In this document: in pieces, positions 24,900 through 63,542 of the stretch
Layout: every line of letters begins with the position of its first letter
Numbering within the stretch: the first letter of the stretch is position 1
Origin: Minisyncoccia bacterium
GTDB taxonomy: Bacteria; Patescibacteriota; Minisyncoccia; Moranbacterales; GCA-2747515
Reading direction: 5' to 3'
DNA length: 64,000 bases
Assembly: GCA_041738235.1 (NCBI GenBank)
Contig: JBGSQF010000006.1
Span: forward strand, 18,261 to 82,260
Translations under genes and position numbers: made by a program
Notes under the pieces: generated by a model
The model's input: the letters and a program-made list of their open reading frames with translations, nothing else
What the model was told of the DNA's origin: nothing
Database searches by the model: none

Positions 24900-26810
24900 T
24901 CAGCTATCAGACTCTTCCCTTGAGGCCTTTTGTAACAGTGTCTTAACTGCATTGATATCGGGTTCTGAGCGCTTTCTCAGAGGTTTGAATCTCTTAGGGG
25001 CCACATGATGCATCTGGGAAAGACGCATAGGTTCATCACGCGTTATATATGCCACAGGCTCTACATTTTGCTCAAGTTTTACTGTTTCCTCACGAGATGA
25101 TTTTGCAATAACAACGTTCTCCACCGTTGTTTTGACCACACTCGATCCAGATGCAACTTGAGTCTTCGCCATCGTCCGCTGGTATTCCTTGAGACACTCT
25201 TTGCAAAAAGTTGGGCGACGCCCATCTGGCACGAATGGAAGTTGTATCTTCAGCCCACAAGTGTCACAAAATGCATCGTACAAAACCCTCTCCGACGTAC
25301 GTCCTTCTTTTTTTACCTCTTCTTTTGGTAGAGAAACGGATGTCGATGCCACAACATTTTTCGTTCCTCCAGGCACGTCTTTTTTGACCAACTTCCGTGG
25401 TTGAGCAATAGAACTCGAAATTCTTTCAACAGAAGCAACTTCTCGCCTCCTTGGCGACAAAGGGTTCTTATGATCAGCCAAAGAAGCTTCCCTGCTGGGT
25501 TCTTGGACTGTCTGTACTGGCGGAGCAAATACACCACTCCATTCTCTGATTCCCTCTTCTACATCTTCTTTTGAGTAAGAATAAGATTCACGAGAACTGC
25601 CTATAACATCCTCAGAAACATCCTGTACATTCTCTGTCTCGATCGGAGGCAAGGTTGTCGCACTAAAAGCATCTCCAGCAATACCATCAATCATGAGCTT
25701 TAGATAAATGTGGTACTTTGGCAGATTGACCACATCATTCATCATGAAAACCGGCTCGAATTCTTTCTCCAAAAATTCAGCATCCATGGCTCCAACACGA
25801 AACGCGATGAGCGTCCCTGCATTTCCAAAAATAGCATCCCGCACGATCTCATCGATCTGGGTCACATATTGATTTGCAAGAATAAGGTTCAGACGATACT
25901 TTCTCGCCTCAGAAAGAATGTTGGCAAATGATTCCGTGGCAAAGTTTTGAAACTCATCTACATAGAGGTAAAAATCATTTCGAACATTTTCAGGAATATC
26001 CACTCGAGCCATTGCCGCCATCTGTATCTTCGTGATCATCATAGCTCCTAAAAGAGCACTGTTATCTTCTCCGATCCGTCCCTTTGCAAGATTGAGTATC
26101 AAGATCTTTCTGTTATCCATCGCTTCACGGATATTAAAAGACGATTTTGTTTGTCCTACAATATTACGGATCAAGGAGGTAGAAAGGAATTGTCCTACCT
26201 TGTTCTGGATAGGCGAGATCACTTCCTGCAACACTCGGTCATTCCACTTTGAAAATTCATCTACCCAAAACGACTTAACAACGGGATCGGTAACGCAATT
26301 GACCACCTGTGCACGATATTTTTTATCCACCAAAATGCGCATGACTCCCAATAAGGTACTTCCTGGATATTCCAGCAAAGCAAGGATGGCATTGCGTAAA
26401 ATATATTCAAGTCGCGGTCCCCATGACTCAGCCCACAGTTTTTTAAATACTCCTATCAGTCCAGATGCTACCAAATGCCGATATTCCGGGGCTACCTGCT
26501 CCATCACATTGAAAGCGATCGGAAACGCCTGGTCTGCAGGATTAAAATAGATCACATCTTTTATTCGATCCGGTGGGATCATTCGTATAAGTTTCTCAGC
26601 CGTATCTCCGTGCGGGTCAACATATGCCACACCGTGTCCATTTTGAATATCCTGCAAAACCAAATGTTCCAAAAGATTGGTCTTTCCCATTCCAGTCTTT
26701 CCAATGATGTACATATGTCGCCTTCGATCATCCGTCTTGATACCAAAAATAGCCTCCTGTCCACGGAAGTTTGTTTTGGCAAAATACGTTATATCATGAG
26801 ATTGAGGCAT
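24900..26810 (-). CDS. Soluble TraD/VirD4-HerA-superfamily ATPase (type IV coupling-protein-like) with C-terminal CxxC..CxxC zinc ribbon
   Basis: HMYIIGKTGMGKTNLLEHL (Walker A) ... VAYVDPHGD (the DPxGD box of TraD/TrwB/HerA) ... FYLYVDEFQNF (Walker B) ... CDTCGLKIQLPFVPDGRRPTFCKEC. No N-terminal TM anchor. Confidence 0.6.
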   Translation of the reverse strand: MPQSHDITYFAKTNFRGQEAIFGIKTDDRRRHMYIIGKTGMGKTNLLEHLVLQDIQNGHGVAYVDPHGDTAEKLIRMIPPDRIKDVIYFNPADQAFPIAFNVMEQVAPEYRHLVASGLIGVFKKLWAESWGPRLEYILRNAILALLEYPGSTLLGVMRILVDKKYRAQVVNCVTDPVVKSFWVDEFSKWNDRVLQEVISPIQNKVGQFLSTSLIRNIVGQTKSSFNIREAMDNRKILILNLAKGRIGEDNSALLGAMMITKIQMAAMARVDIPENVRNDFYLYVDEFQNFATESFANILSEARKYRLNLILANQYVTQIDEIVRDAIFGNAGTLIAFRVGAMDAEFLEKEFEPVFMMNDVVNLPKYHIYLKLMIDGIAGDAFSATTLPPIETENVQDVSEDVIGSSRESYSYSKEDVEEGIREWSGVFAPPVQTVQEPSREASLADHKNPLSPRRREVASVERISSSIAQPRKLVKKDVPGGTKNVVASTSVSLPKEEVKKEGRTSERVLYDAFCDTCGLKIQLPFVPDGRRPTFCKECLKEYQRTMAKTQVASGSSVVKTTVENVVIAKSSREETVKLEQNVEPVAYITRDEPMRLSQMHHVAPKRFKPLRKRSEPDINAVKTLLQKASREESDS

Positions 26811-26849: not shown

Positions 26850-28133
26850 CTATACGGGCAAATTTGCCGGAGCGCTACTTTTCTTAGCATCCACTCGTCT
26901 CAAATACGGAGACTGTACCACCATATCAGGCATATGAAAAACCGATGCAAGTTCCTTGGTACTTAAAATGAATGTTTTACCATCCGTATCCCGATCCTTA
27001 TATCGTCGAAAGATCTTCCGTTGTCGATACCGAAGACGCGTTTCCCGAGCAAAAAAGTTAGCAAATGTCTTTGATGTATTGTCTGGTTTAAAACTATTCA
27101 AGTTCATATCGGCAAATTGCTTGATACCTCCGATAAAAGACGAAACCACAGATTTATTAAACTGCTCTCTTCGCCCCAAATACACAAACCTCATTTTTGT
27201 TTTAAAGACATTTCTTCCGACATTCGCTTCCAAGGCCTCCAAGGCCTTCCTCTCTCCAGGAGTAAGCCTAAGATCAAGGGGATCCTCTCCCGCCTTCTCC
27301 TCCCCCTTCTTGGCCCACACCGGCTGTTGAAATAATGCTGGAATAATATTTTTTGCAAATTCCCCTACTCCACCAACTACACCTTCAATAACACTCACCT
27401 TCTTGACCTTTTTCTTTCGACCTGCAAGTTCTTCCACTAGTTCATGCCCCTCTTTGCTCCACGATTCATTCAAAGGAACAATCACGATCTGAAACCAAGT
27501 CTTTTGATCCATCCCCACTTTTCCAAGCGCTTCAATGAGTCCTGCCATAGGATCGATCATCTTTCCTGTAATATCCTCCTCAAAAAAATCATACGTCTTA
27601 ATTGGAAGCGGGTCTGGTCCCACAAGCTGCATATCGGTTCCCCATAGATCCCATTCTTTATTTGGCATCACACCGGGAACATCATAGATATAATCCTCTA
27701 CTTCTCGGATCTCTACGTCGGGATATTGAGCATACAAATGTGACTCGACAAGATTTCTATATGGCTTCGGCGTTCGAATATAAAGATGCACCACCCCCGA
27801 TTCACCCATCATTTCTAAACTAAATTTAGTGGTAAATTTCCCATCTATAAATTCTTCCAATACGTTGAATGTGGAAAGAATACCCGCCATTGCCGAGTAA
27901 AGAGACTCCATGATCTTTGGACTTTTTTCGAGATTTTGAGGAGGAAATATCTCAAGAAGAACATATTCTATCGTACCAGCATATTTTATCTGGATGTGGT
28001 CTACCCACAGCAGCAAAAATATCGGGTAGAACATGATCGGCAAAACAACATACCATACCAACGAGAAAAAGCGCCATGCCGAGGCGATATCCGCTCCCAT
28101 CCCTTGGAATGTTCCTAGGAGGAGTTCCATCAT
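26850..28133 (-). CDS. Membrane protein (2 N-terminal TM helices plus about 350-aa soluble domain), partner of the coupling-protein-like ATPase
   Basis: TM helices FFSLVWYVVLPIMFYPIFLLLWV. Sits immediately upstream of the ATPase on the same strand with a 40-nt gap. No known domain recognised. Confidence 0.45.
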   Translation of the reverse strand: MMELLLGTFQGMGADIASAWRFFSLVWYVVLPIMFYPIFLLLWVDHIQIKYAGTIEYVLLEIFPPQNLEKSPKIMESLYSAMAGILSTFNVLEEFIDGKFTTKFSLEMMGESGVVHLYIRTPKPYRNLVESHLYAQYPDVEIREVEDYIYDVPGVMPNKEWDLWGTDMQLVGPDPLPIKTYDFFEEDITGKMIDPMAGLIEALGKVGMDQKTWFQIVIVPLNESWSKEGHELVEELAGRKKKVKKVSVIEGVVGGVGEFAKNIIPALFQQPVWAKKGEEKAGEDPLDLRLTPGERKALEALEANVGRNVFKTKMRFVYLGRREQFNKSVVSSFIGGIKQFADMNLNSFKPDNTSKTFANFFARETRLRYRQRKIFRRYKDRDTDGKTFILSTKELASVFHMPDMVVQSPYLRRVDAKKSSAPANLPV

Positions 28134-30591: not shown

Positions 30592-31365
30592 TTATTGTGT
30601 AAGGGTCCAGGGCGTGGTCAAAAGCACCATCGAGACTAAAACGATAAGCACTGTTACATCACCCCACGCACGCGAACGCGTGAATACTCCCTCCGTATAG
30701 CTGCTCAGAACGTCCCATAGAACATAATAGAGGATAAGGAGGATCACTCCTGTTGTCAAATACCCAAATGGCCAAAACTGCGTCATCCATCCTAACTCAA
30801 CAAAGAATATACCTACGGCCACACTATACATTTTAACATGGACGTTATCTCGAGCAATACCAGAGAGGTATTGATGTGTCAAAATATATGCACCAAACCC
30901 CATAAACCCCATAAATGACCAGATCGGGACAGAGTAATTAATGAGTATCCCGATCAAAACCGAGAAAAAAAGAAACACTGAAGCAATGGTAATAGCTGAT
31001 AAAATACTTTTTGTCATCCCCACAAGAGGTCCCTCATGCCAACGACGATACCCCCACAACATCCAAAAGAGAAGACTTCCCGATATCACCGAAAATATAT
31101 GCTGTCTCACCATATCATCTATAAACAAGAGAAGGGCCCAAGAAAATATTCCAAAAAAGAACAACAGAACATTACCTCGTGAAGACCCCCGAAAAACAAG
31201 TGGCCGAATGGAGACCAAAAGCATCAACAGTGCAACAAGTGAGAATATATACCATTCGGGAAAGAATACCGAAAACTCTAGTATTGCAAGAAAAAGACCA
31301 GATAATACAATAACCAATGGATGCATACGATAGTATAACGATAACCTTCCCGAAACCTGCACCAA
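30592..31365 (-). CDS. Polytopic membrane protein (about 8 TM helices) between the two HtrA paralogs
   Basis: 257 aa, hydrophobic throughout; function unknown. Confidence 0.45.
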   Translation of the reverse strand: MVQVSGRLSLYYRMHPLVIVLSGLFLAILEFSVFFPEWYIFSLVALLMLLVSIRPLVFRGSSRGNVLLFFFGIFSWALLLFIDDMVRQHIFSVISGSLLFWMLWGYRRWHEGPLVGMTKSILSAITIASVFLFFSVLIGILINYSVPIWSFMGFMGFGAYILTHQYLSGIARDNVHVKMYSVAVGIFFVELGWMTQFWPFGYLTTGVILLILYYVLWDVLSSYTEGVFTRSRAWGDVTVLIVLVSMVLLTTPWTLTQ

Positions 31366-48084: not shown

Positions 48085-48993
48085 ATGTCCACTATTTACA
48101 CCCTTACTAAAAACCTGCGAGAAGCTTCAACCGTTGAGTCGGCCGACGTTGTATTGATCCTTTCTTTTATTCTCAAAAGACCAAAAGAGTATATCCTCGC
48201 GCACCCGGAACACGAACTCTCAAAAGAAGAACAGAAAAAACTTCAACAGCTCCTGGAAAGACGCGGATCAGGAGAGCCCCTCGCATACATCTTTGGAAAA
48301 AAAGAGTTCTTTGGAAAGGACTTTCGGGTCACGCCCGATACCCTCATCCCACGACCAGAGACAGAACTGCTTGTGGAAGAAACGGTGGAGCACCTTCTAA
48401 AGAACGAGAATAAAAAAACAATTCTTGTCGATGTTGGAACAGGATCAGGATGCATCATCGCATCAGTCGTTAGTCAGCTAAGAAAATTAAATTCTACATT
48501 ACTCCAAGATATTAAATTCTATGGTCTTGATATTTCCAAGCAATCACTCGACATCGCAATAAAAAATGCGAAGTGCCATAACGTTTTAAGTAACATTGTT
48601 TTTCTCCGATCAAATCTTTTGGAATATCTTTTGCATCACCCATCCTTGATCAAAGATCATACATCACTCATTGTTGTTGCAAATCTTCCTTACGTTCCTT
48701 CTGCATACCTCCAACAGAAAAAAACAAAACTCACGAAAGGGCTTTCTTTTGAACCATCGCTCGCACTCGATGGTGGCAAGGATGGTTTCGATCTCTATCG
48801 ATCACTTCTCGATCAAATTCGATCACTTCGAAAGTTACATTCACACATCATCATTCACTGTTTATTTGAAATAGGGAATGATCAAAAATTAACCTCCAAA
48901 AAAAATATTACAAGCGTATTTCCCCACATCAAAATCAGTTCTAAAAAAGATCTCTCAGGACAGATACGCATGATAAAATTTTCCTTAGATTAA
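48085..48993 (+). CDS. prmC: Release-factor glutamine N5-methyltransferase PrmC/HemK-like
   Basis: SAM motif VDVGTGSGCI; motif IV reads NLPY (VVANLPYVPS) rather than the canonical NPPY; lies downstream of prfA. Confidence 0.7.
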   Translation: MSTIYTLTKNLREASTVESADVVLILSFILKRPKEYILAHPEHELSKEEQKKLQQLLERRGSGEPLAYIFGKKEFFGKDFRVTPDTLIPRPETELLVEETVEHLLKNENKKTILVDVGTGSGCIIASVVSQLRKLNSTLLQDIKFYGLDISKQSLDIAIKNAKCHNVLSNIVFLRSNLLEYLLHHPSLIKDHTSLIVVANLPYVPSAYLQQKKTKLTKGLSFEPSLALDGGKDGFDLYRSLLDQIRSLRKLHSHIIIHCLFEIGNDQKLTSKKNITSVFPHIKISSKKDLSGQIRMIKFSLD

Positions 48994-49011
48994 AGTAAAA
49001 ATACAACATAA

Positions 49012-49045
49012 AACAAAAGCTCCGGAGTTCCGGAGCTTTTGTTTT
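49012..49045. terminator. Bidirectional intrinsic terminator (palindromic)
   Basis: aaaa-GCTCCGG-agtt-CCGGAGC-ttttgtttt, between the convergent prmC and the small Lys-rich gene. Confidence 0.6.
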
Positions 49046-49090
49046 ATATCGAAATCAAAAGAGCTTTTTGTATTGTTTTTCAAGACAAAA

Positions 49091-49222
49091 CTATTTCTTT
49101 CGCTTTGCGACTTTTCGTTTTGCTGTCTTCTTCACAGCCTTCTTTGCTGTCTTCTTCACAGCCTTCTTTACGGCCTTCTTAGCTGGCTTTCGCACAGCCT
49201 TTTTCTTTTTTGCAACTGCCAT
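49091..49222 (-). CDS. 43-aa Lys/Ala-rich basic protein (histone-H1/Hc1-like tail; absent from the ORF track)
   Basis: Translation MAVAKKKKAVRKPAKKAVKKAVKKTAKKAVKKTAKRKVAKRKK. Strong RBS AAAGGAGGTGA 8 nt upstream of the ATG, and a terminator immediately downstream. Confidence 0.55.
   Translation of the reverse strand: MAVAKKKKAVRKPAKKAVKKAVKKTAKKAVKKTAKRKVAKRKK
49121..49168. repeat. Perfect 2 x 24-bp tandem repeat (plus degenerate third copy to about 49180) inside the Lys-rich gene
   Basis: tgctgtcttcttcacagccttctt repeated head-to-tail; each copy encodes KKAVKKTA. Confidence 0.6.
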
Positions 49223-49561
49223 AGAGGTCACCTCCTTTCAATTTTATTTTCCTTTTTTTTATTTTCTTGAAACACATCTTTATATACATATATTATACAA
49301 ACAAATATTTTTTTATACAAGTACAAATACAAAAAAATAAATGTGCATAACTTTTTAATACAAAAAAATATTTTCTTGTTGACTTTAATACAAATCCCCA
49401 CCGTTATTATTTCCATTCATACATTTAAACTTTTTCGTCATGGGATAGTAAGTTAATTTTTATCTCACCTCTGCTCCAGCACTACTCTACACAAACACCT
49501 TTTTTATAGTTGCAATTTATTGTTTAAAAAAACAAAAGTTCTATACTCATTTTTATTCAAT

Positions 49562-49590
49562 TTGACTGTATCAGAAAAATCCTTTATCCT
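49562..49590 (+). promoter_or_regulatory. Candidate promoter TTGACT-17-TATCCT for the 49692 gene
   Basis: Hexamers at 49562-49567 and 49585-49590 inside a 470-nt AT-rich gap; AGAGAGG RBS before the ATG. Confidence 0.3.
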
Positions 49591-49691
49591 AAAAGGAAAT
49601 CGGTCGATATTCTTGTTCGCAACGACGAAATCAAGGATTATGCAGTATTATCCGACAGGACAGTTATTCTAGAAAGAGAGGTGACAACAAA

Positions 49692-50330
49692 ATGGAAGAA
49701 GCCCCAAAAGAAACGCAAGAAGAAGAAAAGATAGGATCGGTTCGCCACTGGGTCGAGGAAAACCTTCGCCTTATTGTTAGCGTGGTGATCGTTATCGCTC
49801 TCGGAGCAACGATCTATTCCTATTCCCAAAGAACAAAAGAATCCACGGTTGTATTTGAGAATGGAAACAACACTCAAGAGCAAGTACTCGTCGACAACAC
49901 TGGGGAAAAGACGACAGACTCCCAACAAGTCGTTGATACCGCAGGATCTGATCAACAGAACAATGAGCAGCCCGCAGTGGAAACAACTCCGGCCAAACCA
50001 GAGGTCACTTCGACAGAAACGAGCAAAGAAACTTCTGACGCTTTTATCGCTATTGCTCAAAAAGGAGATGGGCTCACTCACCTCGCACGAAAAGCTCTGG
50101 CAGATTATCTCGCCAAGAACCCCGATTCACAACTGACCGTAGCTCATAAGATCTACATTGAAGACGCCCTCAGAAAGGCCGTTGGTCATAAGGGAGGTGT
50201 CCATGTAGGCACAGAAGTATCGTTCTCGAAAGACCTTATTCAGAAGACCATTGAGCAAGCCAAAAACCTTAACGAACGTCAACTCCAGAACTTACAGAAA
50301 TACGTTCCGCTTGTGCCTTCACTCTCCTGA
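49692..50330 (+). CDS. Membrane-anchored acidic protein, unknown function
   Basis: 212 aa; TM LIVSVVIVIALGATIY; Glu/Thr/Gln-rich low-complexity segment; C-terminal globular part. Confidence 0.45.
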   Translation: MEEAPKETQEEEKIGSVRHWVEENLRLIVSVVIVIALGATIYSYSQRTKESTVVFENGNNTQEQVLVDNTGEKTTDSQQVVDTAGSDQQNNEQPAVETTPAKPEVTSTETSKETSDAFIAIAQKGDGLTHLARKALADYLAKNPDSQLTVAHKIYIEDALRKAVGHKGGVHVGTEVSFSKDLIQKTIEQAKNLNERQLQNLQKYVPLVPSLS

Positions 50331-56237: not shown

Positions 56238-58634
56238 ATGACAGAGAAACAAAATCGCAAAGACCAAACGGAAATGCAATCCGTCATCACGCCCCTTACC
56301 ATAATAGGCAACGATCGCTTAGCCCCCTACATCCAAGTATTCACCCATCAACCGGAAAACATTACCCAACATGCCCTTGGAACGCTTTTTGGGATATTCA
56401 AGATCGACGACATCAGCGTTGATAGTGCCTTTATCGTAAACTTTCTTGTTTCCGAATTCAAGAAAGAATACTATGGAAATCCCCGAAGAACTCCTGCGGG
56501 AAGTTTTGAAGCGGGTCTCAATCGAATAAACATCGCCCTTTCCGAACTCGCCAAACAGGGAAATATTGCCTGGATAGGAAAGATCGAATCAGCTCTTTGT
56601 GCTCTTGAGAAAAACGGGATGCTACACTTTAGCGCAACAGGTCCTGCGCACATCGCGCTCATGAGAGAAGGTTCTCTATCGCTGATCAGTGATGGCCTTG
56701 CCCCAGAAGCCACAGCACCCAATCCCCTCAAGACATTTATTGAGATCTCCTCAGGAAAACTTCACCCTGAAGACCTGGTCATCCTTGGAACACATGAATT
56801 GTTCGAATTCCTCCCCAAAGAAAAAATGGAAAGAAACGCAAAACACTTCAGCTATGAAGAATTTACGAGATTTCTTCATACTGCACTTGTCAATGAATTT
56901 GATCTTTGTGGAACAGTAACTGTTTTACTCAACAAAAGAGCCCCGATCCCCAAAACAAGAAAGTCATCCTCATCAATATCCCCAGAATCCATACCGAACA
57001 TGTTTAGTGCAAAAGCATTTCGTAAACATTCTGGAAAGAAAGAGGGAATGATAGTCACCGACCCAGAAGAAGACAGTTCGACCCAAAGAAAAAATCAGGA
57101 AGGACATCTTTATATTCAACAACAAGCATCGTCGGTCAATGACTCTGGTCAGGAACTCAGAGAAACGCTCCTTATGTTCAAAGAACGAATCGCAAACATC
57201 CTAGATGAGCGTATTACTGCCTCCCAAAATACCTTGCGTCAATGGCGACGAACCCTTGAAAAAGAGCTCTCCCGCAGATTTAAAAAGTCTTCGCCTGTAA
57301 AACCGACACCCATAATAAGCAAAGATCGTGTGCCCAACAACGGAGAACCTCTTGTCAAAAAATATAACACTCAACAAGAAACACCCTCACTTCAAGAAAT
57401 ATCTTTTATACGTCCATCCCAAAAAACGCCGGACAACAGAGATCAAAAAACAACAGAGGAGCTCAAATTGGAAGAATCTTCAGTTACTAACATCTTTGAC
57501 ACCATTTTTAAAAATTCCACAATAAAGAAAATAGGTGATCTTCTCCGCACGTTATGGAAAAAAATCCGTACTCTTACCCCGGTTATCCTTGGCGTATTTC
57601 AAAGATACACTCGGGATCTCCCAAAAGCCTTCTCACATCTTTCTCGTTTTATTCAACAATTGGTACAGATCGTACCGGAACAATACAGGAAGATCGTCCC
57701 ACTCGCTCTTGCTATTGCTATCGCTCTCATCGCCTTCTTTCTTATTCCCAAAAAAGACAATACAAAAATACAAGAAACACCCCAGGAAATTACTCAACAA
57801 GAACCAGCTCTTCCCGATCGATCAGCGACCTTCTCACAAGAAAAGAATGTTTTCTTTCCTAAAAAAGAGGATGAGATAGCCCTCTATACATCGCAAAACA
57901 CTATTCAAAATATTTTCACTTTTGACGAGAAAACACTGCTTGTTTTGGATGATAGCTCCATCAGCATCGTTCCAAAAGAAGGGGCGCCTGAAAATTTCCC
58001 GATTCCAGAAACAAACGGCACGACACTATCGGCCACCTATATGAAAGATCTGTCCACCCTCTTTGTTCTGACAGACAAGGGGTCCATTGTTTCCTTTAGT
58101 CCCATCTCCAAGAAATTTTCAAACAACTCACTAGTCCTAGAAGATCCCTCTACCAATAAATTCCTTCTTGGTAGTTACCTCACCTACCTCTATGTCGCCA
58201 ACACCACACAAAATACCATACTCCGCTATCCACGTGCTGAAGCAGGTGGCTTTGGAGAACCTCTTACGTGGCTTTCGAACGATTCAGGTGTTTCTCTTTC
58301 AGATGCGATCGACATGACGATCGACGGGTCGATCTATCTCATCAAACCAACAGGTATTACCCGTCTGAACAATAAAAAAGAAGATCCCCTTACGATTGAA
58401 AGCCCTAATAATCCAGCACAATTTGGATCTATCTTTACTCAAAATGAGTCAGATGCTCTTTACGTCTCAGATATAAAGAATAACAGGATCCTCCTCTTTA
58501 AAAAAGATGGTTCGATCGAACGACAGATCATACTTCCAGAAGCAACACCCGCAATATCAAAGGTGAGCCATTTAGAAAATAGCAGTGCCCTTATACTCCA
58601 GGGAGAACGTGAGATACTTCAGCTGGAGCAATAG
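56238..58634 (+). CDS. Large (798 aa) hypothetical protein: N-terminal cytoplasmic domain, central TM helix, C-terminal beta-propeller-like (NHL/YVTN-like) repeats
   Basis: TM IVPLALAIAIALIAFFLI at about aa 490; the C-terminal 300 aa carry repeated hydrophobic/Gly/Asp beta-strand blocks (YVSDIKNNRILLFKKDGS). Confidence 0.5.
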   Translation: MTEKQNRKDQTEMQSVITPLTIIGNDRLAPYIQVFTHQPENITQHALGTLFGIFKIDDISVDSAFIVNFLVSEFKKEYYGNPRRTPAGSFEAGLNRINIALSELAKQGNIAWIGKIESALCALEKNGMLHFSATGPAHIALMREGSLSLISDGLAPEATAPNPLKTFIEISSGKLHPEDLVILGTHELFEFLPKEKMERNAKHFSYEEFTRFLHTALVNEFDLCGTVTVLLNKRAPIPKTRKSSSSISPESIPNMFSAKAFRKHSGKKEGMIVTDPEEDSSTQRKNQEGHLYIQQQASSVNDSGQELRETLLMFKERIANILDERITASQNTLRQWRRTLEKELSRRFKKSSPVKPTPIISKDRVPNNGEPLVKKYNTQQETPSLQEISFIRPSQKTPDNRDQKTTEELKLEESSVTNIFDTIFKNSTIKKIGDLLRTLWKKIRTLTPVILGVFQRYTRDLPKAFSHLSRFIQQLVQIVPEQYRKIVPLALAIAIALIAFFLIPKKDNTKIQETPQEITQQEPALPDRSATFSQEKNVFFPKKEDEIALYTSQNTIQNIFTFDEKTLLVLDDSSISIVPKEGAPENFPIPETNGTTLSATYMKDLSTLFVLTDKGSIVSFSPISKKFSNNSLVLEDPSTNKFLLGSYLTYLYVANTTQNTILRYPRAEAGGFGEPLTWLSNDSGVSLSDAIDMTIDGSIYLIKPTGITRLNNKKEDPLTIESPNNPAQFGSIFTQNESDALYVSDIKNNRILLFKKDGSIERQIILPEATPAISKVSHLENSSALILQGEREILQLEQ

Positions 58635-58711: not shown

Positions 58712-59845
58712 TTACATGAGCTGTAGACGTTCGATAAGCTCATCAATATTTTCGTTACTTTCGAATACAACACTTCCAACGGCTATCCTCTGAGCACCCG
58801 CCATGATGCATGCTTTCAGATTTTCTTGCGTGATACCTCCGTCCAAACCAATAGAAACCCTTTTTGGAAAAGATTTGCGAGCTTCCCCAATACGGTCCAC
58901 AACTCCAGGGAGCATGCTTTGTCCTGATTTCCCGGGGTGAACCCCCATAAGCAGAACGCTCTCAATATACGGCGCGAGACCGACGACTTTTTGTATGTCC
59001 GTTTCGGAGTTTATAGCGACCCCGACCTGCATGCCATGCCCCACTACTGTTTCACAAAAAGACCGAGCTTGTTCAACATCACGAACTGACTCCCAATGGA
59101 ATATACATCGATCGATCCCCGCTTTCTGACATAATTCTATGTATTCAAATGGGTCCACCACCATCAAATGCGCCTCATAGAAAAATGGATATCGCTTCCC
59201 ATCAAACTCTTGTAGCGCGAACGATATTTCAGGAACAAACTTCCCATCCATAATATCCAACTGTACCCAATCCGCCAGACCCTCCACTAAAGAAAGTTTT
59301 TTATACACGGCGTCTAAACCCTTCTCTAAAATAGCTGGAATGATCTTTCTAGACCCAAAACTTTTCATTGTCCGAATCGCCTCCGATCGTTCAAATGCAT
59401 CTATCTTCCTTACTCTTCTAACAAAACGCTTGTTTTCCTCGAACCCTGTACAAAGCCACGCAAGAATAACATGTTTTTCCTCCTCTAAAGAAACACTTCT
59501 GGCGGCCACACATAACACATTCGTATCATCATCTCGTTTTCCGCTTTGTACATGTCCTTCTCCAAGCGCACAAGCCGCTCGAATCCCACGAACCTTATTG
59601 GCCGATATACACATTCCCACACCAGAACCACACAAAACGATTCCCAGTGATCCGGAATCCTTCGACACTGATCGTCCAACAGCAAAGCCAAAATCAGGAT
59701 AGTCATCTTCAGCCTCAAATTTTGTATTTCCACAATCTTTCACCTCATACCCATGGTCATGCAAAAAAACTCTAAGGGCCTCCTTCATTTCAAACCCCGC
59801 ATGATCAGACCCAATATAGATAGTTCTGCCACTTGGTGAATCCAT
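58712..59845 (-). CDS. Bifunctional fusion: ribose-5-phosphate isomerase B (N-terminus) and ribulose-phosphate 3-epimerase (C-terminus)
   Basis: N-terminus IYIGSDHAGFEMKE...GIVLCGSGVGMCISANKVRGIRAA (RpiB/LacAB); C-terminus VQLDIMDGKFVP...LLMGVHPGKSGQSM...GLDGGIT (Rpe). Confidence 0.75.
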   Translation of the reverse strand: MDSPSGRTIYIGSDHAGFEMKEALRVFLHDHGYEVKDCGNTKFEAEDDYPDFGFAVGRSVSKDSGSLGIVLCGSGVGMCISANKVRGIRAACALGEGHVQSGKRDDDTNVLCVAARSVSLEEEKHVILAWLCTGFEENKRFVRRVRKIDAFERSEAIRTMKSFGSRKIIPAILEKGLDAVYKKLSLVEGLADWVQLDIMDGKFVPEISFALQEFDGKRYPFFYEAHLMVVDPFEYIELCQKAGIDRCIFHWESVRDVEQARSFCETVVGHGMQVGVAINSETDIQKVVGLAPYIESVLLMGVHPGKSGQSMLPGVVDRIGEARKSFPKRVSIGLDGGITQENLKACIMAGAQRIAVGSVVFESNENIDELIERLQLM

Positions 59846-59871: not shown

Positions 59872-60792
59872 TTACCCTTTAAGCTTCTTGACGTATTCGT
59901 ACGCACTGAGTGCCGCAAGCGTACCATACCCAGCAGAAATATTGTTTTGTTTGTAAGCTGCATCAGTTGCATCACCCGCAGCAAATATCCCAGCATGAGA
60001 TGTTGCGCATGTTCGATGATCGATCGTAATCTCTCCATATGGGTTTCGATCTACTAGGCCCTTAACGAGCTCTGTATTCGGCACCATTCCGATCTCCACA
60101 AAGACTCCCTGCACATCAAGAGTCTTTTCCTCTTGTGTTTGAAGGTCCTGGTAACGAATACCAGCAACTGCCTCTCCCCCCAACACTTCCTTTGTATCCA
60201 CATTATAGATAACCTCCACTTTTGGATTGCCCTTCACCTCCTCTTGTAAAAGGGGATCTCCGGTCAATTCTCCACGAGACAATAAATAAATTTGATCCGC
60301 GTATGGGTAGAGGTCTTGGCACGCCTCGAGCCCACTGTTTCCCCCACCCACGACCGCTACCGTTTTCCCTCGAAAGAAGGGCGCGTCACACGTTGAACAA
60401 TATACAACCCCGTGACCGATAAATTTCTCTTCACCGGGTACGTTCAAGTGTCGATGCCTTCCTCCGGTAGCGAGTATTATACTTTTTGTTTCATATTTCT
60501 CCCCCTTCTCCGTTTCAACCTCAAATCCTTCATATTGTTTAGCAATCGCCCTCACCTTCACGCCCGTTTGAATTTCAATATCCTCCTGTGCACGCAGATG
60601 CCCTTCCAACTTCTGAGCAAACTCAAATCCTTTGATAGAAACCTCTCCGATCCAATTCTCGATCGTCGCCGAAACACTCGACTGCCCTCCGATCGTATCC
60701 GTAAGAAAGAGCGTCTTCATCTTCTTGCGCGCCGCATATACTCCAGCAGATACTCCGGCGGGTCCACCACCGATAATTATGACATCATACAT
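59872..60792 (-). CDS. trxB: Thioredoxin reductase
   Basis: [13 protein letters not shown] (FAD), redox [24 protein letters not shown]. Start set at the Met of MYDV; the ORF track extends to a TTG at 60873. Confidence 0.8.
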
Positions 60793-61037
60793 ATGTATTG
60801 CTTTATATTGGATAACCCTTTTATTTGGATACCTTTCATTATTGCTTTTTTGACCACCCTGACAACCCGTCAACTGTCAGTATACCGAAATAACACGTTA
60901 TTGACAAACAAAAGAATGCTCCCATCATATTTATTTACTACGCGATACCAGTATTTAAATTTCTCTTCGACACTTTTCTTTTTTAGAAAGATGCAGTATT
61001 GTATATACATCCCAAAAACCACTCAGGGGAGAGGTCC

Positions 61038-61211
61038 ATGTCCGGAGAAAACTGGGTTCGTAAGCAGTACAAATGCCCCTATTGCGGGGCGTATTTGGTT
61101 CAAGAGGAGGAACTCTGTCCCAAAGCGTGCCCGAATTGCGAAGCGCCCATCACTGTCGAAGTCATCGAAGTGATGCTCGGGGAACGCCCAAAAGACCACA
61201 GAGATGATTGA
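61038..61211 (+). CDS. Small zinc-ribbon protein (CxxC...CxxC), unknown
   Basis: MSGENWVRKQYKCPYCGAYLVQEEELCPKACPNCEAP...; AGGGGAGAGG RBS upstream; GC-richer than its surroundings. Confidence 0.5.
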   Translation: MSGENWVRKQYKCPYCGAYLVQEEELCPKACPNCEAPITVEVIEVMLGERPKDHRDD

Positions 61212-61249
61212 TCTCGGGAGTCGGCTCCGCGCATAGCCGACTCCCAAAC

Positions 61250-61280
61250 AAAAAAACCGAACTTTATCGGTTTCTTTTTA
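61250..61280. terminator. Bidirectional terminator (preceded by an 11-bp GC hairpin at 61216-61245)
   Basis: aaaaaa-ACCGA-acttta-TCGGT-ttcttttt; separates the zinc-ribbon gene from the convergent purC. Confidence 0.5.
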
Positions 61281-61372
61281 TATAAAGTAAACTGCGCTCA
61301 TTTCATCCGGAAATGGCGCAGTCAAAGATCTTCTTATTACTCTTGTTGTTGCTATTTTTCCTCAGTCCTTAC

Positions 61373-62281
61373 TTAATCGACCATAAGGCGACGCTCCGCC
61401 TCACGATATTTCTCCGCCGTCTTGTCGATGATCTCCTGGGGCAGCTCCGGTCCTGGCGGGGTCTTGTCCCAACCCAGGGTCTCCAGGTAATCACGGACGA
61501 ACTGCTTGTCGAAACTCGGCGGGCTCGTACCAGGTTGATACTGGCTCTCCGGCCAGAAGCGCGACGAGTCCGGAGTGAGCACCTCGTCGATGAGGTAGAG
61601 GCGCCCGTCGGCGTCCAAGCCAAACTCGAACTTGGTGTCAGCGATGATAATGCCGTGAGCCAAGGCGTGAATAGCTCCCCACTGATAAAGCCTCAAGCTC
61701 ACCTCGCGCACCTGCTTGGCCAGGTCACTACCAAGCAGCCAAGCGGTACGGTCGAAGCTGATGTTCTCGTCATGGTCTCCGGTCTGCGCCTTAGTAGACG
61801 GCGTGTAGATCGGCTCACGCAAACGATCAGCCTGAGTCAATCCCTCCGGTAAGGTGATGCCACATACGGCGCCATTCTTCTGGTAGTCCTTCCAGCCGGA
61901 GCCGATCAGGTACCCGCGGACGATCGCCTCCACCGGCAAGGCGTCAAGACGGCGCACTACCACGGCGCGGTCACCCAGGCAAGCACGCTCGTCTGGATCC
62001 GTGACCACATCGTCCACCGAGATACCGCACAAGTCATTCGGGACGATGAAATCAGTCCGCCTCTTCCAAAATCCAGAAAGACGAGCCAACACCTCACCCT
62101 TACCCGGGATGGGCTGTGGCAAAACGACATCGAACGCCGACAGCCGGTCCGTGGCGACCACGAGCATGTGCGCATCGTCCACGTGGTACATATTGCGCAC
62201 CTTACCACGTTGAAAGAGAGGTAAACCCGATCTCGAGAGATCAGCGTCACCAAGAGCCTCTGACATAGGAAGTCTCCTCAT
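61373..62281 (-). CDS. purC: SAICAR synthetase (phosphoribosylaminoimidazole-succinocarboxamide synthase), long form
   Basis: GKVRNMYHVDD...ATDRLSAFD...IIADTKFEFG...DEVLTPDSSRFW; markedly GC-rich (about 60%) against about 40% for the window. Confidence 0.8.
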   Translation of the reverse strand: MRRLPMSEALGDADLSRSGLPLFQRGKVRNMYHVDDAHMLVVATDRLSAFDVVLPQPIPGKGEVLARLSGFWKRRTDFIVPNDLCGISVDDVVTDPDERACLGDRAVVVRRLDALPVEAIVRGYLIGSGWKDYQKNGAVCGITLPEGLTQADRLREPIYTPSTKAQTGDHDENISFDRTAWLLGSDLAKQVREVSLRLYQWGAIHALAHGIIIADTKFEFGLDADGRLYLIDEVLTPDSSRFWPESQYQPGTSPPSFDKQFVRDYLETLGWDKTPPGPELPQEIIDKTAEKYREAERRLMVD

Positions 62282-62405
62282 GCGTTTTGGAAGTCAGACG
62301 GTGTGTCCAACTTGACCATTCTCTTCGTATCATATAACACTTCAAAATGCAAAAACGGACTCACTGTCCGTCTTACAAGCCTTGCTTTCCTACGACTTAC
62401 CGCCC

Positions 62406-63542
62406 CTACCTACTTATAACTCCACTTCCCAAACACCTCTCCCCGTCATAAAGCACTGCAAATTGCCCAGGAGCGATCCCCCGTTCTTTATGATCAAGAA
62501 GCTGTAAACGAAGACAGGTCTTTTGAGTATCAAGAAATTCCACTACACAGGCGTACTGTTGCGCCCCATGTCGTATCTTTACTTTAAACTGAGCACCCTT
62601 ATACAGGATGTCCATCGGCACAAGCCAACGAAAATCTTCCACCTCAAACGTGTCACGCTCAACATTCGTCATTTTGAGACGATGGGAAATAAGAACGATA
62701 TTCTTTGAAACGTCTTTTCCCGTCACATACCATGGCCCACCGGAAAGATTCAACTTGTGCCGTTGTCCGATCGTATACAGCCAATATCCCTTGTGTCGTC
62801 CCACTACCTCACCCGTATCAGTGTTCACAATATCCCCCTCCCTCTCTCCCAAGTGATGACACACAAAATCAGCATAGTTGATCTTTCCCAAAAAACAGAG
62901 TCCTTGACTATCGGGACGATCCTTGGTTGGAAGGCTCCATTCCTTTGCCAATGCACGGACCTCACTTTTCATATACTGGCCTAATGGGAAAAGTGCCTGA
63001 GAAAGTTGCCCCTGAATAAGACGCGAGAGAAAATAGGTCTGATCCTTCACTGGGTCTGCCGCAGTAAGCAGAGTGTACTGGGACAGTTGATCCCGCCCCT
63101 TACGCCCATGCATTTCTTTCGTCTTCAGTTTTTCACTACCTATCATTGGTACAACTCGTGCGTAATGTCCCGTTGCCACCTTATCAAAAGTTATACCTTT
63201 TTCTTTCAACCAATCCGAAAACGCCCCGAATTTGATAAAACTATTGCACATCACATCCGGGTTGGGAGTGCGTCCCGCTCGCACCTCAGAAAGAGCGTAA
63301 GAGATAACTCGCTCATGATACTCCTTTTGAAGAGGCACTATCTCAAGCGGTACGTCAAGCTGCTTACATACCGCTCGCACATACCCCATATCCTCTTCCC
63401 ATGGACACTCACCCAAAAAGGCCGTCTCGTCTTCGAGCCAGATCTTAAGATAGAATGCCAAAACTGTATGTCCTTCATCTTGAAGAAGCTTAAGTGCCAC
63501 AGAACTATCAACTCCTCCAGACACAAGAACCGCTATACGCAT
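62406..63542 (-). CDS. mnmA: tRNA-specific 2-thiouridylase MnmA
   Basis: MRIAVLVSGGVDSSVA (PP-loop), catalytic Cys residues, C-terminal beta-barrel. Start set at MRIAV; the ORF track extends to 63593. Confidence 0.8.
   Translation of the reverse strand: MRIAVLVSGGVDSSVALKLLQDEGHTVLAFYLKIWLEDETAFLGECPWEEDMGYVRAVCKQLDVPLEIVPLQKEYHERVISYALSEVRAGRTPNPDVMCNSFIKFGAFSDWLKEKGITFDKVATGHYARVVPMIGSEKLKTKEMHGRKGRDQLSQYTLLTAADPVKDQTYFLSRLIQGQLSQALFPLGQYMKSEVRALAKEWSLPTKDRPDSQGLCFLGKINYADFVCHHLGEREGDIVNTDTGEVVGRHKGYWLYTIGQRHKLNLSGGPWYVTGKDVSKNIVLISHRLKMTNVERDTFEVEDFRWLVPMDILYKGAQFKVKIRHGAQQYACVVEFLDTQKTCLRLQLLDHKERGIAPGQFAVLYDGERCLGSGVISR

Follow-up and report, generated by a model that had tools for sequence, protein, structure and literature searches.

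Horizontal acquisitions of individual metabolic genes are on record for Patescibacteria, the bacteria of the candidate phyla radiation (CPR) (Gios et al., 2025, mSystems, PMC12455944). Classical genomic islands are compositionally deviant blocks that are missing from relatives, linked to tRNA genes and equipped with an integrase and direct repeats. The locus described here shares traits with both. It lies in a stretch of 64,000 nucleotides (nt) of contig JBGSQF010000006.1 (assembly GCA_041738235.1), hereafter the window, and centers on purC (61373..62266, minus strand), the predicted gene for a 297-aa SAICAR (phosphoribosylaminoimidazole-succinocarboxamide) synthetase, situated between mnmA and trxB. 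Like the genes of Gios et al., it is one metabolic gene of distant origin, detectable by its composition in a streamlined CPR genome; unlike them, it can be compared with relatives that show the empty site, an intermediate stage or a copy of the gene in another lineage, so that the order and the relative age of the events can be read. Purine genes are nowhere mentioned in PMC12455944, and a literature search returned no paper mentioning purC together with Patescibacteria, nor any mentioning SAICAR together with the candidate phyla radiation. Like a classical island, the block is compositionally deviant and missing from relatives; unlike one, it measures ~1.5 kb, is built of two layers, contains no gene-like open reading frame (ORF) other than purC and a small zinc-ribbon gene, contains no integrase or transposase, and lies ~17 kb from the nearest tRNA gene (at 43.7 kb). 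We propose, with a probability of roughly 0.8, that a Moranbacteria-like CPR lineage gained a single proteobacterial purC, and that the gene has since been kept by vertical descent under purifying selection.

The window has an overall guanine-plus-cytosine (GC) content of 42.9%. The block at 61001-62000 reaches a GC of 0.557, and every other 1-kb block lies between 0.36 and 0.50. purC itself has a GC of 0.589-0.591 and a GC at third codon positions (GC3) of 0.706-0.711 (values for the listed ORF, 61373..62281, and for the form with the conserved start, 61373..62266), against 0.315-0.489 and 0.31-0.58, respectively, in every other ORF of 90 aa or more. Relative to 498 in-frame pieces of 894 nt cut from host genes, these figures correspond to z = 6.7 for GC and z = 6.6 for GC3, and none of the 498 pieces reaches purC; the GC3 of such equal-length pieces is 0.39 +/- 0.05, vs 0.71 in purC. 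Among 253 windows of 1 kb, those over purC rank top for both GC (z = 4.5-4.7) and tetranucleotide composition (z = 5.1). A preliminary interpretation made from the letters of the DNA, here called the sequence-only reading, had placed purC at about 60% GC, far above the other genes, and had suggested windowed GC and tetranucleotide scores as a check; the values above confirm the former, and purC is the top outlier in both of the latter. The same reading would have been undermined by the presence of many GC-rich segments. Apart from purC, the sole compositional outlier is AT-rich and lies at 48.5-50 kb, so that the window is not generally heterogeneous.

GC changes abruptly at both ends of the GC-rich block, and purC is 76-79% identical to proteobacterial genes, as would be expected of an assembly chimera or contamination in which a GC-rich proteobacterial block had been wrongly joined to a CPR contig. 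This explanation is effectively refuted. The exact PurC protein is encoded on two independently assembled Logan contigs (L001 and L002, from runs SRR28170473 and SRR28170474), which are 100% identical to the window over 1.8 kb encompassing purC, the zinc-ribbon gene and the junctions with mnmA and trxB; both junctions are thus reproduced base for base in two assemblies of two runs. Moreover, the mnmA-purC junction recurs, with diverged sequence, in an organism of another project (L011), the GC3 of purC, at 0.71, falls short of the 0.91 of donor-type genes, and its leader has a host-like GC. The chimeric join against which the sequence-only reading had cautioned is excluded by the two independent assemblies together with the L011 junction.

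The affinities of purC and of its neighbor point in different directions. The best non-self matches of PurC are 70-79% identical, the closest three (76-79%) being located on proteobacterial contigs of 68-70% GC, and all named matches are proteobacterial (Chromatiaceae, Thiohalocapsa, Thiolapillus, Gammaproteobacteria, Pseudomonadota). At these three closest donor-type loci (L014-L016), purC has a GC3 of 0.90-0.92, and the neighboring genes encode ZapD/YacG, ribosomal protein S1, resistance-nodulation-division (RND) efflux components and multihaem cytochromes. In the proposed history, the donor of purC was a high-GC proteobacterium, most likely a gammaproteobacterium, as these matches suggest. 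The nearest relatives of MnmA are metagenomic sequences at 75%, 70% and 60-66% identity, and its named matches include Candidatus Moranbacteria at 54-58%. An exact-peptide scan of GTDB species genomes with MnmA was uninformative, returning relatives of 33-36% identity only, since the host clade has no representative there that is close enough for such a scan. From these sequence affinities, the host is a Moranbacteria-like member of the CPR/Patescibacteria in which purC is phylogenetically foreign, an origin that the sequence-only reading had proposed and that the proteobacterial relatives of PurC and the CPR/Moranbacteria relatives of MnmA support. In a metagenome scan with PurC, the GC of purC tracked that of its flanks at all 80 loci returned, none of which had mnmA or trxB nearby or represented a further CPR carrier. 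A phage vector was considered and set aside, the best PurC match in viral contigs being 60% identical over the full length, with one 54-residue fragment at 69%.

Relatives of the host preserve the site in other states. In L019-L022 (four runs), whose MnmA is 62% identical to that of the window, the mnmA stop is followed after 2 nt by the trxB promoter, and purC and the zinc-ribbon gene are both absent from this mnmA|trxB junction. Next come trxB (84%), rpiB-rpe (63%) and, on the other strand, a homolog of a 798-aa gene (55%), which is the order of the window. Compared with this empty junction, the window has ~1.5 kb of extra DNA (60908..62405) in two layers, one with the zinc-ribbon gene and one with purC; an insertion between trxB and mnmA, as previously claimed, is therefore supported for purC. 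In L012 (MnmA 70%), mnmA is followed by a terminator and then by a convergent 63-aa ortholog of the zinc-ribbon gene, with no purC beside mnmA and no purC remnant in the spacer between mnmA and the terminator; the trxB promoter motif lies ~450 bp beyond this ortholog. Between the zinc-ribbon gene and that motif, L012 has ~310 bp more than the window (7620-7940 of L012), a stretch that includes an 87-aa ORF of doubtful reality. In L011 (MnmA 75%), purC comes straight after mnmA, and the contig stops after 127 purC codons. The MnmA tree groups the window with L011 (90% bootstrap) and joins L012 to this pair (81%), leaving L029, L019 and L013 outside.

The most economical reading of these loci is one of three successive states. 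Ancestrally, mnmA would have been followed directly by the trxB promoter, as in the empty junction of L019; a zinc-ribbon gene and a bidirectional terminator would then have opened the junction, as in L012; finally, purC from a high-GC proteobacterium would have landed in the short spacer downstream of mnmA, as in the window and L011, shortly before the lineages of these two split. Entry of purC by illegitimate recombination after DNA uptake is likely, given that the insert shows neither mobility genes nor flanking repeats: the repeat search gave only short matches, often at chance level, and none was convincing. The neighbors of mnmA differ in L013, L018 and L029, which are uninformative on the mnmA|trxB junction; in this clade, the DNA on the 3' side of mnmA seems to have undergone repeated insertion and rearrangement. 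In L029 (6400-7347; MnmA 60%), an IS110-family transposase gene is convergent with mnmA and lies 44 bp past its end.

Comparison of the window with L011 gives the transfer a relative age. The two PurC proteins are 75.6% identical over 127 codons and are reciprocal best matches. The number of synonymous substitutions per site (dS) is 1.19 for purC and 1.27 for mnmA, and the ratio of nonsynonymous to synonymous rates (dN/dS) is 0.134 and 0.142, respectively; purC has diverged in step with mnmA, under equally strong purifying selection. At the third positions of codons whose amino acid is common to three donor-type genes, there are 52 changes from G/C to A/T and 2 from A/T to G/C. Of the sites comparable in both CPR copies, eight are A/T in both, where ~6.5 would be expected under independence, and this chance-level sharing implies that purC was still near its donor composition when the two lineages split. 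With a GC3 of ~0.91 in donor-type genes, 0.71 in the window, 0.66 in L011 and 0.35-0.45 in host genes, AT-biased mutation has lowered the value from ~0.9 to ~0.7 separately in each lineage. The sequence-only reading had regarded purC as a recent arrival. An insertion common to L011, a purC dS matching that of mnmA and a fallen GC3 contradict this; the gene is incompletely ameliorated, and measured against the divergence of species it would be wrong to call it "recent". A strong GC anomaly alone does not imply a recent event.

The same data bear on the possibility of two captures of a proteobacterial purC at one hot spot, by the window lineage and by that of L011. The similarity between the CPR copies barely exceeds their similarity to proteobacterial ones, the strong-to-weak third-position changes are nearly all lineage-specific, and the 3' flank of mnmA is variable in the clade, as illustrated by the transposase of L029 and the zinc-ribbon gene of L012. 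Nevertheless, two separate gains at one position appear very improbable: the junction is identical, purC and mnmA have the same dS, the two copies are each other's best match, and both carry a common low-GC leader of ~85 nt without similarity to donor-type upstream DNA. A single origin is in fact supported less by the protein identities than by the identical junction, the conservation of the leader and the nature of this leader, which is host-like in GC and shows no similarity to donor-type upstream regions.

This leader, the presumed promoter and 5' untranslated region of purC, occupies 62267..62351 (minus strand; counterpart at 3880-3961 of L011) and has a GC of 0.42. It is 73% identical between the window and L011 over 85 nt, compared with 40% for adjacent non-coding DNA, and blastn aligns 52 nt of it at 84.6%, although synonymous sites between the two are near saturation; the donor-type upstream regions gave no blastn match to it. 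A hairpin of 9-10 bp, AAGUUGGAC...GUCUGACUU, appears in the folds of both the window and L011 leaders and tolerates a change from A-U to G-U, with a folding energy that is no better than that of shuffled sequences (z of -0.7 and -1.0). After the transfer, the leader may have evolved as a promoter or as an element controlling translation. An Rfam search of the leader and terminator region for a riboswitch or other known RNA gave chance-level matches only, and a metagenome scan with the conserved leader as a DNA pattern gave no match. Immediately upstream of the leader lies an intrinsic terminator of mnmA (62352..62374, minus strand), AAGACGGAC AGTGA GUCCGUUUU, recognized in a terminator scan by its stem and T-run; this position suggests that purC is transcribed separately from mnmA. 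The conserved start of purC is the ATG at 62266, preceded by a GAGGAG ribosome-binding site, and both start and site are kept in L011; an alternative upstream ATG at 62281 is not conserved there. Downstream, hairpin H3 (61292..61321, minus strand), identified from sequence and fold, is the presumed purC terminator, CUGCGCCAUUUC CGGAU GAAAUGAGCGCAG followed by the U-rich UUUACUUUAU, and L012 shows nothing equivalent at that position. purC is thus an intact unit that possesses a conserved leader, a ribosome-binding site and a terminator hairpin of its own.

The product of purC is most likely a working SAICAR synthetase, converting carboxyaminoimidazole ribonucleotide (CAIR), aspartate and ATP to SAICAR, as its family matches indicate. 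It scores 232.8 bits against Pfam PF01259 (SAICAR_synt; cutoff 20), 429.6 bits against NCBIfam NF010568 (cutoff 251) and 239.9 bits against TIGR00081 (cutoff 189.9). The best relative of solved structure is the 301-aa enzyme of M. abscessus (3r9r; E = 1.5e-83, residues 19-294 aligned), followed by yeast Ade1 (1a48, 306 aa; E = 6.1e-75); the 237-aa E. coli form gives a weak match (5e-5). The assignment to the long form of roughly 300 aa made from sequence inspection was therefore correct. Like the long-form SAICAR synthetases (NF010568/PRK13961; PF01259; 3R9R/6YVQ, 1A48), PurC is ~297 aa long, matches over its full length and contains the same blocks, namely GKVR, ATDRLSAFD, TPSTKA, DTKFEFG and DEVLTPDSSRFW. 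It differs from them in being encoded in a CPR genome of 43% GC, in its intermediate codon composition and in four departures (D>N, T>A, P>R, D>S) from near-invariant columns, defined as those at least 97% conserved among 119 homologs. These departures lie outside the conserved blocks, and some of the positions vary in the M. abscessus PurC too.

Several points weigh against the proposed history. The purC of L011 is limited to 127 codons, and its margin as sister of the window gene is small (75.6% identity, vs 75.0% and 71.8% to proteobacterial copies). The gammaproteobacterial identity of the donor relies on named matches of 71-74% identity and on gene context, and the branching order on a neighbor-joining tree of one protein, MnmA. 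A promoter scan upstream of purC found no sigma-70 consensus. PurC departs from the consensus at 4 of 145 near-invariant columns, vs a mean of 0.6 and a maximum of 5 among homologs. Finally, the role envisaged for purC, which would either fill or replace its step in a de novo route to purines whose other genes lie elsewhere, is judged from 64 kb of the genome.

With regard to this role, the sequence-only reading had found no other purine gene nearby and had considered that a lone purC might be in the process of decay. A Pfam scan of 26 ORFs of the window detected no purine-biosynthesis family apart from PurC, and the remaining ORFs, inspected by their N-termini, include recognizable type IV pilus, ribosomal, translation and replication genes and none that resembles a purine-biosynthesis enzyme, so that the first observation extends to the whole 64 kb. 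Nucleotide biosynthesis is also missing in many Patescibacteria (PMC12455944; bioRxiv 10.64898/2026.09.16.751625). Both facts, together with the four departures mentioned above, would suit a metabolically useless remnant on its way to loss, or a protein that, in a genome devoid of the other pathway enzymes, does something other than make SAICAR. Decay is nonetheless contradicted by a dN/dS of 0.134 over a dS of ~1.2, as for mnmA, by the retention of 141 of 145 near-invariant columns, by the full-length match to solved enzymes and by the intact frame, ribosome-binding site, leader and terminator. The isolation of purC in the window is uninformative, given that the proteobacterial loci examined also have purC away from the other purine genes, and a complete de novo pathway to inosine monophosphate (IMP) was reported in ~32% of CPR genomes in one groundwater study (PMC11608272), so that a lone purC is not to be assumed. 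Altogether, we lean toward the view that purC takes part in de novo purine synthesis, with the other steps encoded outside the window, and regard an orphan role or a decaying remnant as quite unlikely. Should the pathway exist elsewhere, purC would be a gap filler or a xenologous replacement; should it be missing, a PurC retained by selection as an orphan would be truly puzzling.

More speculatively, the gain of purC could be the re-acquisition of a lost purine step from the very organism on which the CPR lineage lives, a scenario to which we attach little weight. Were it true, the donor clade, i.e., high-GC, Chromatiales-like sulfur-oxidizing Gammaproteobacteria, would indicate which organism this uncultured Moranbacteria-like group physically lives on, and the lineage would be rebuilding its metabolism through repeated landings at the mnmA|trxB junction. 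More generally, the locus illustrates that a foreign metabolic gene can become fixed, gain host-type expression signals and stay under strong purifying selection with a codon composition that has yet to approach equilibrium. The case is a well-resolved but ordinary horizontal gene transfer, which should not surprise specialists of CPR genomics and opens no long-standing question.

The second layer of the extra DNA has a history that is probably distinct. The zinc-ribbon gene (61038..61211, plus strand) encodes a protein of 57 aa with the pattern CPYC-x14-CPNC and a charged, partly acidic C-terminal tail; it was detected by sub-threshold Pfam matches and its L012 ortholog. The convergent CxxC..CxxC gene noted from the sequence thus exists, with one residue fewer than the 58 given there. 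It is probably real, considering its ribosome-binding site, the conservation of frame and cysteines in L012 and a coding-like pattern of identity by codon position between the two (0.46/0.65/0.40). The positional ortholog in L012 is 35% identical and retains the four cysteines, the N-terminal MS..W and the LGE motif; its longer tail is strongly acidic. In composition, the window gene exceeds every long ORF (GC 0.523, GC3 0.586), in keeping with the GC-richness claimed by the sequence-only reading, but it is a mild outlier for its length: at 174 nt, z is 2.1 for GC and 2.5 for GC3, values reached by 2.7% and 0.8% of host pieces, respectively.

The protein resembles members of Zn_ribbon_3 (PF13248) and Zn_Ribbon_1 (PF13240) in its small size and CxxC-x14-CxxC spacing; it differs from them in falling below both thresholds (23.8 bits for a cutoff of 27, and 21.2 bits for a cutoff of 25), in having a single detectable ortholog (L012) and in lacking a significant fold match. 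Its structural model has a predicted local distance difference test score (pLDDT) of 71.5, and a fold search of the PDB returned generic zinc-ribbon/rubredoxin modules at E > 1. A word-indexed search with the alignment of the two sequences recovered the query itself only, and HMMER over 1.84 billion representative proteins found generic zinc-ribbon segments in unrelated proteins and no proteobacterial homolog. In our view, this is a small protein specific to the lineage and without a relation to purC. At one donor-type locus (L015, 1868-2843), purC is followed by zapD and yacG, and YacG is itself a small zinc-ribbon protein. The zinc-ribbon protein of the window has no Pfam match to the YacG family, so that the L015 neighborhood was taken as a coincidence.

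Three hairpins separate the zinc-ribbon gene from purC, and the fold of 61205-61335, which comprises them, has an energy of -59.7 kcal/mol (z = -7.5 vs shuffled sequences). Besides H3, these are H1, a GC-rich perfect stem of 11 bp (61216-61226 / 61235-61245; inverted repeat I12, 100% complementary and present in the fold) that begins 4 nt past the zinc-ribbon stop codon, and H2 (61250..61277), an A-tract/T-tract bidirectional terminator (inverted repeat I18; 61254-61273 on the plus strand in the terminator scan). The GC-rich hairpin that the sequence-only reading had called a terminator is real, in the form of H1; it has no T-run on the plus strand and alone fails the definition of an intrinsic terminator. 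L012 lacks an H1 equivalent and has a G-rich run instead. L012 and the window are alignable at H2 (TACTTTA..AAAAA..ACCGAT..TCGGT..TTT), which by this sequence comparison is host-derived and common to both, and in blocks (AAAAAAGAAAGTGT and ATATGATGG) of the AT-rich DNA upstream of the zinc-ribbon gene (60908..61037), which is absent in L019.

These observations bear on the original idea of a single islet, in which purC and the zinc-ribbon gene came together and purC was later deleted in L012. The empty site of L019 lacks both genes, the zinc-ribbon GC3 is above that of the host and only ~2 standard errors below that of purC, and on the tree a gain followed by a loss requires as many events as two gains do. 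A joint arrival is nonetheless unlikely, if not negligibly so. L012 has the ortholog, the terminator and the upstream DNA with neither purC nor a remnant of it, and its ortholog has a host-like GC3 of 0.41; no zinc-ribbon gene neighbors purC at L014-L016, the three closest donor-type loci examined; no proteobacterial homolog was found among the 1.84 billion representative proteins; and the host-derived H2 sits between the two genes. A common islet is thus unsupported, and the zinc-ribbon gene probably arrived separately, being either older at this site than purC or lineage-specific.

The flanks of the extra DNA are native. mnmA (62406..63542, minus strand; stop codon at 62406-62408) encodes the tRNA 2-thiouridine synthase, as matched by Pfam and by NCBIfam (TIGR00420, 370.6 bits). 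On the other side, a trxB-like gene (59872..60792, minus strand) encodes a thioredoxin/AhpF-type reductase, recognized by Pfam and NCBIfam and 83.8% identical to the L019 protein. Its promoter (60879..60907, minus strand; TTGTCA, 17 nt, TATACT; 10/12 in the promoter scan) marks the right-hand edge of the inserted DNA, and the window, L012 and L019 have the conserved blocks of its motif, TTGTCAATA-N-TTTCGGTATACT, in common. The -35 element TTGTCAA (within 60879-60928) is nearly its own reverse complement, and the plus strand reads TTGACA, 16 nt, CATCAT; it may double as the -35 element of a divergent promoter for the zinc-ribbon gene. Beyond trxB lies the gene for a 377-aa RpiB-Rpe protein (58712-59845, minus strand in the window; 7101-8264 in L019), a fusion of ribose-5-phosphate isomerase B and ribulose-phosphate 3-epimerase according to its Pfam and NCBIfam matches, which is kept in L019. 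It is followed by the gene for the 798-aa lineage-specific protein (56238-58634, plus strand in the window; 8349-10694 in L019), conserved in position at 55% identity and without a Pfam domain.

Elsewhere in the window, a type IV pilus cluster occupies 5-15 kb, and a TrwB/TraG-like type IV coupling ATPase with a treble-clef zinc finger (24900-26810, minus strand) is adjoined by two proteins without a Pfam match (26850-28133 and 30592-31365). The AT-rich outlier (48500-50000; GC 0.33, tetranucleotide z = 5) contains a 43-aa Lys/Ala-rich ORF, MAVAKKKKAVRKPAKKAVKKAVKKTAKKAVKKTAKRKVAKRKK (49091..49222, minus strand), which is made of a 12/24/36-nt tandem repeat, is preceded by GGAGGT and may encode a histone-H1-like basic protein.

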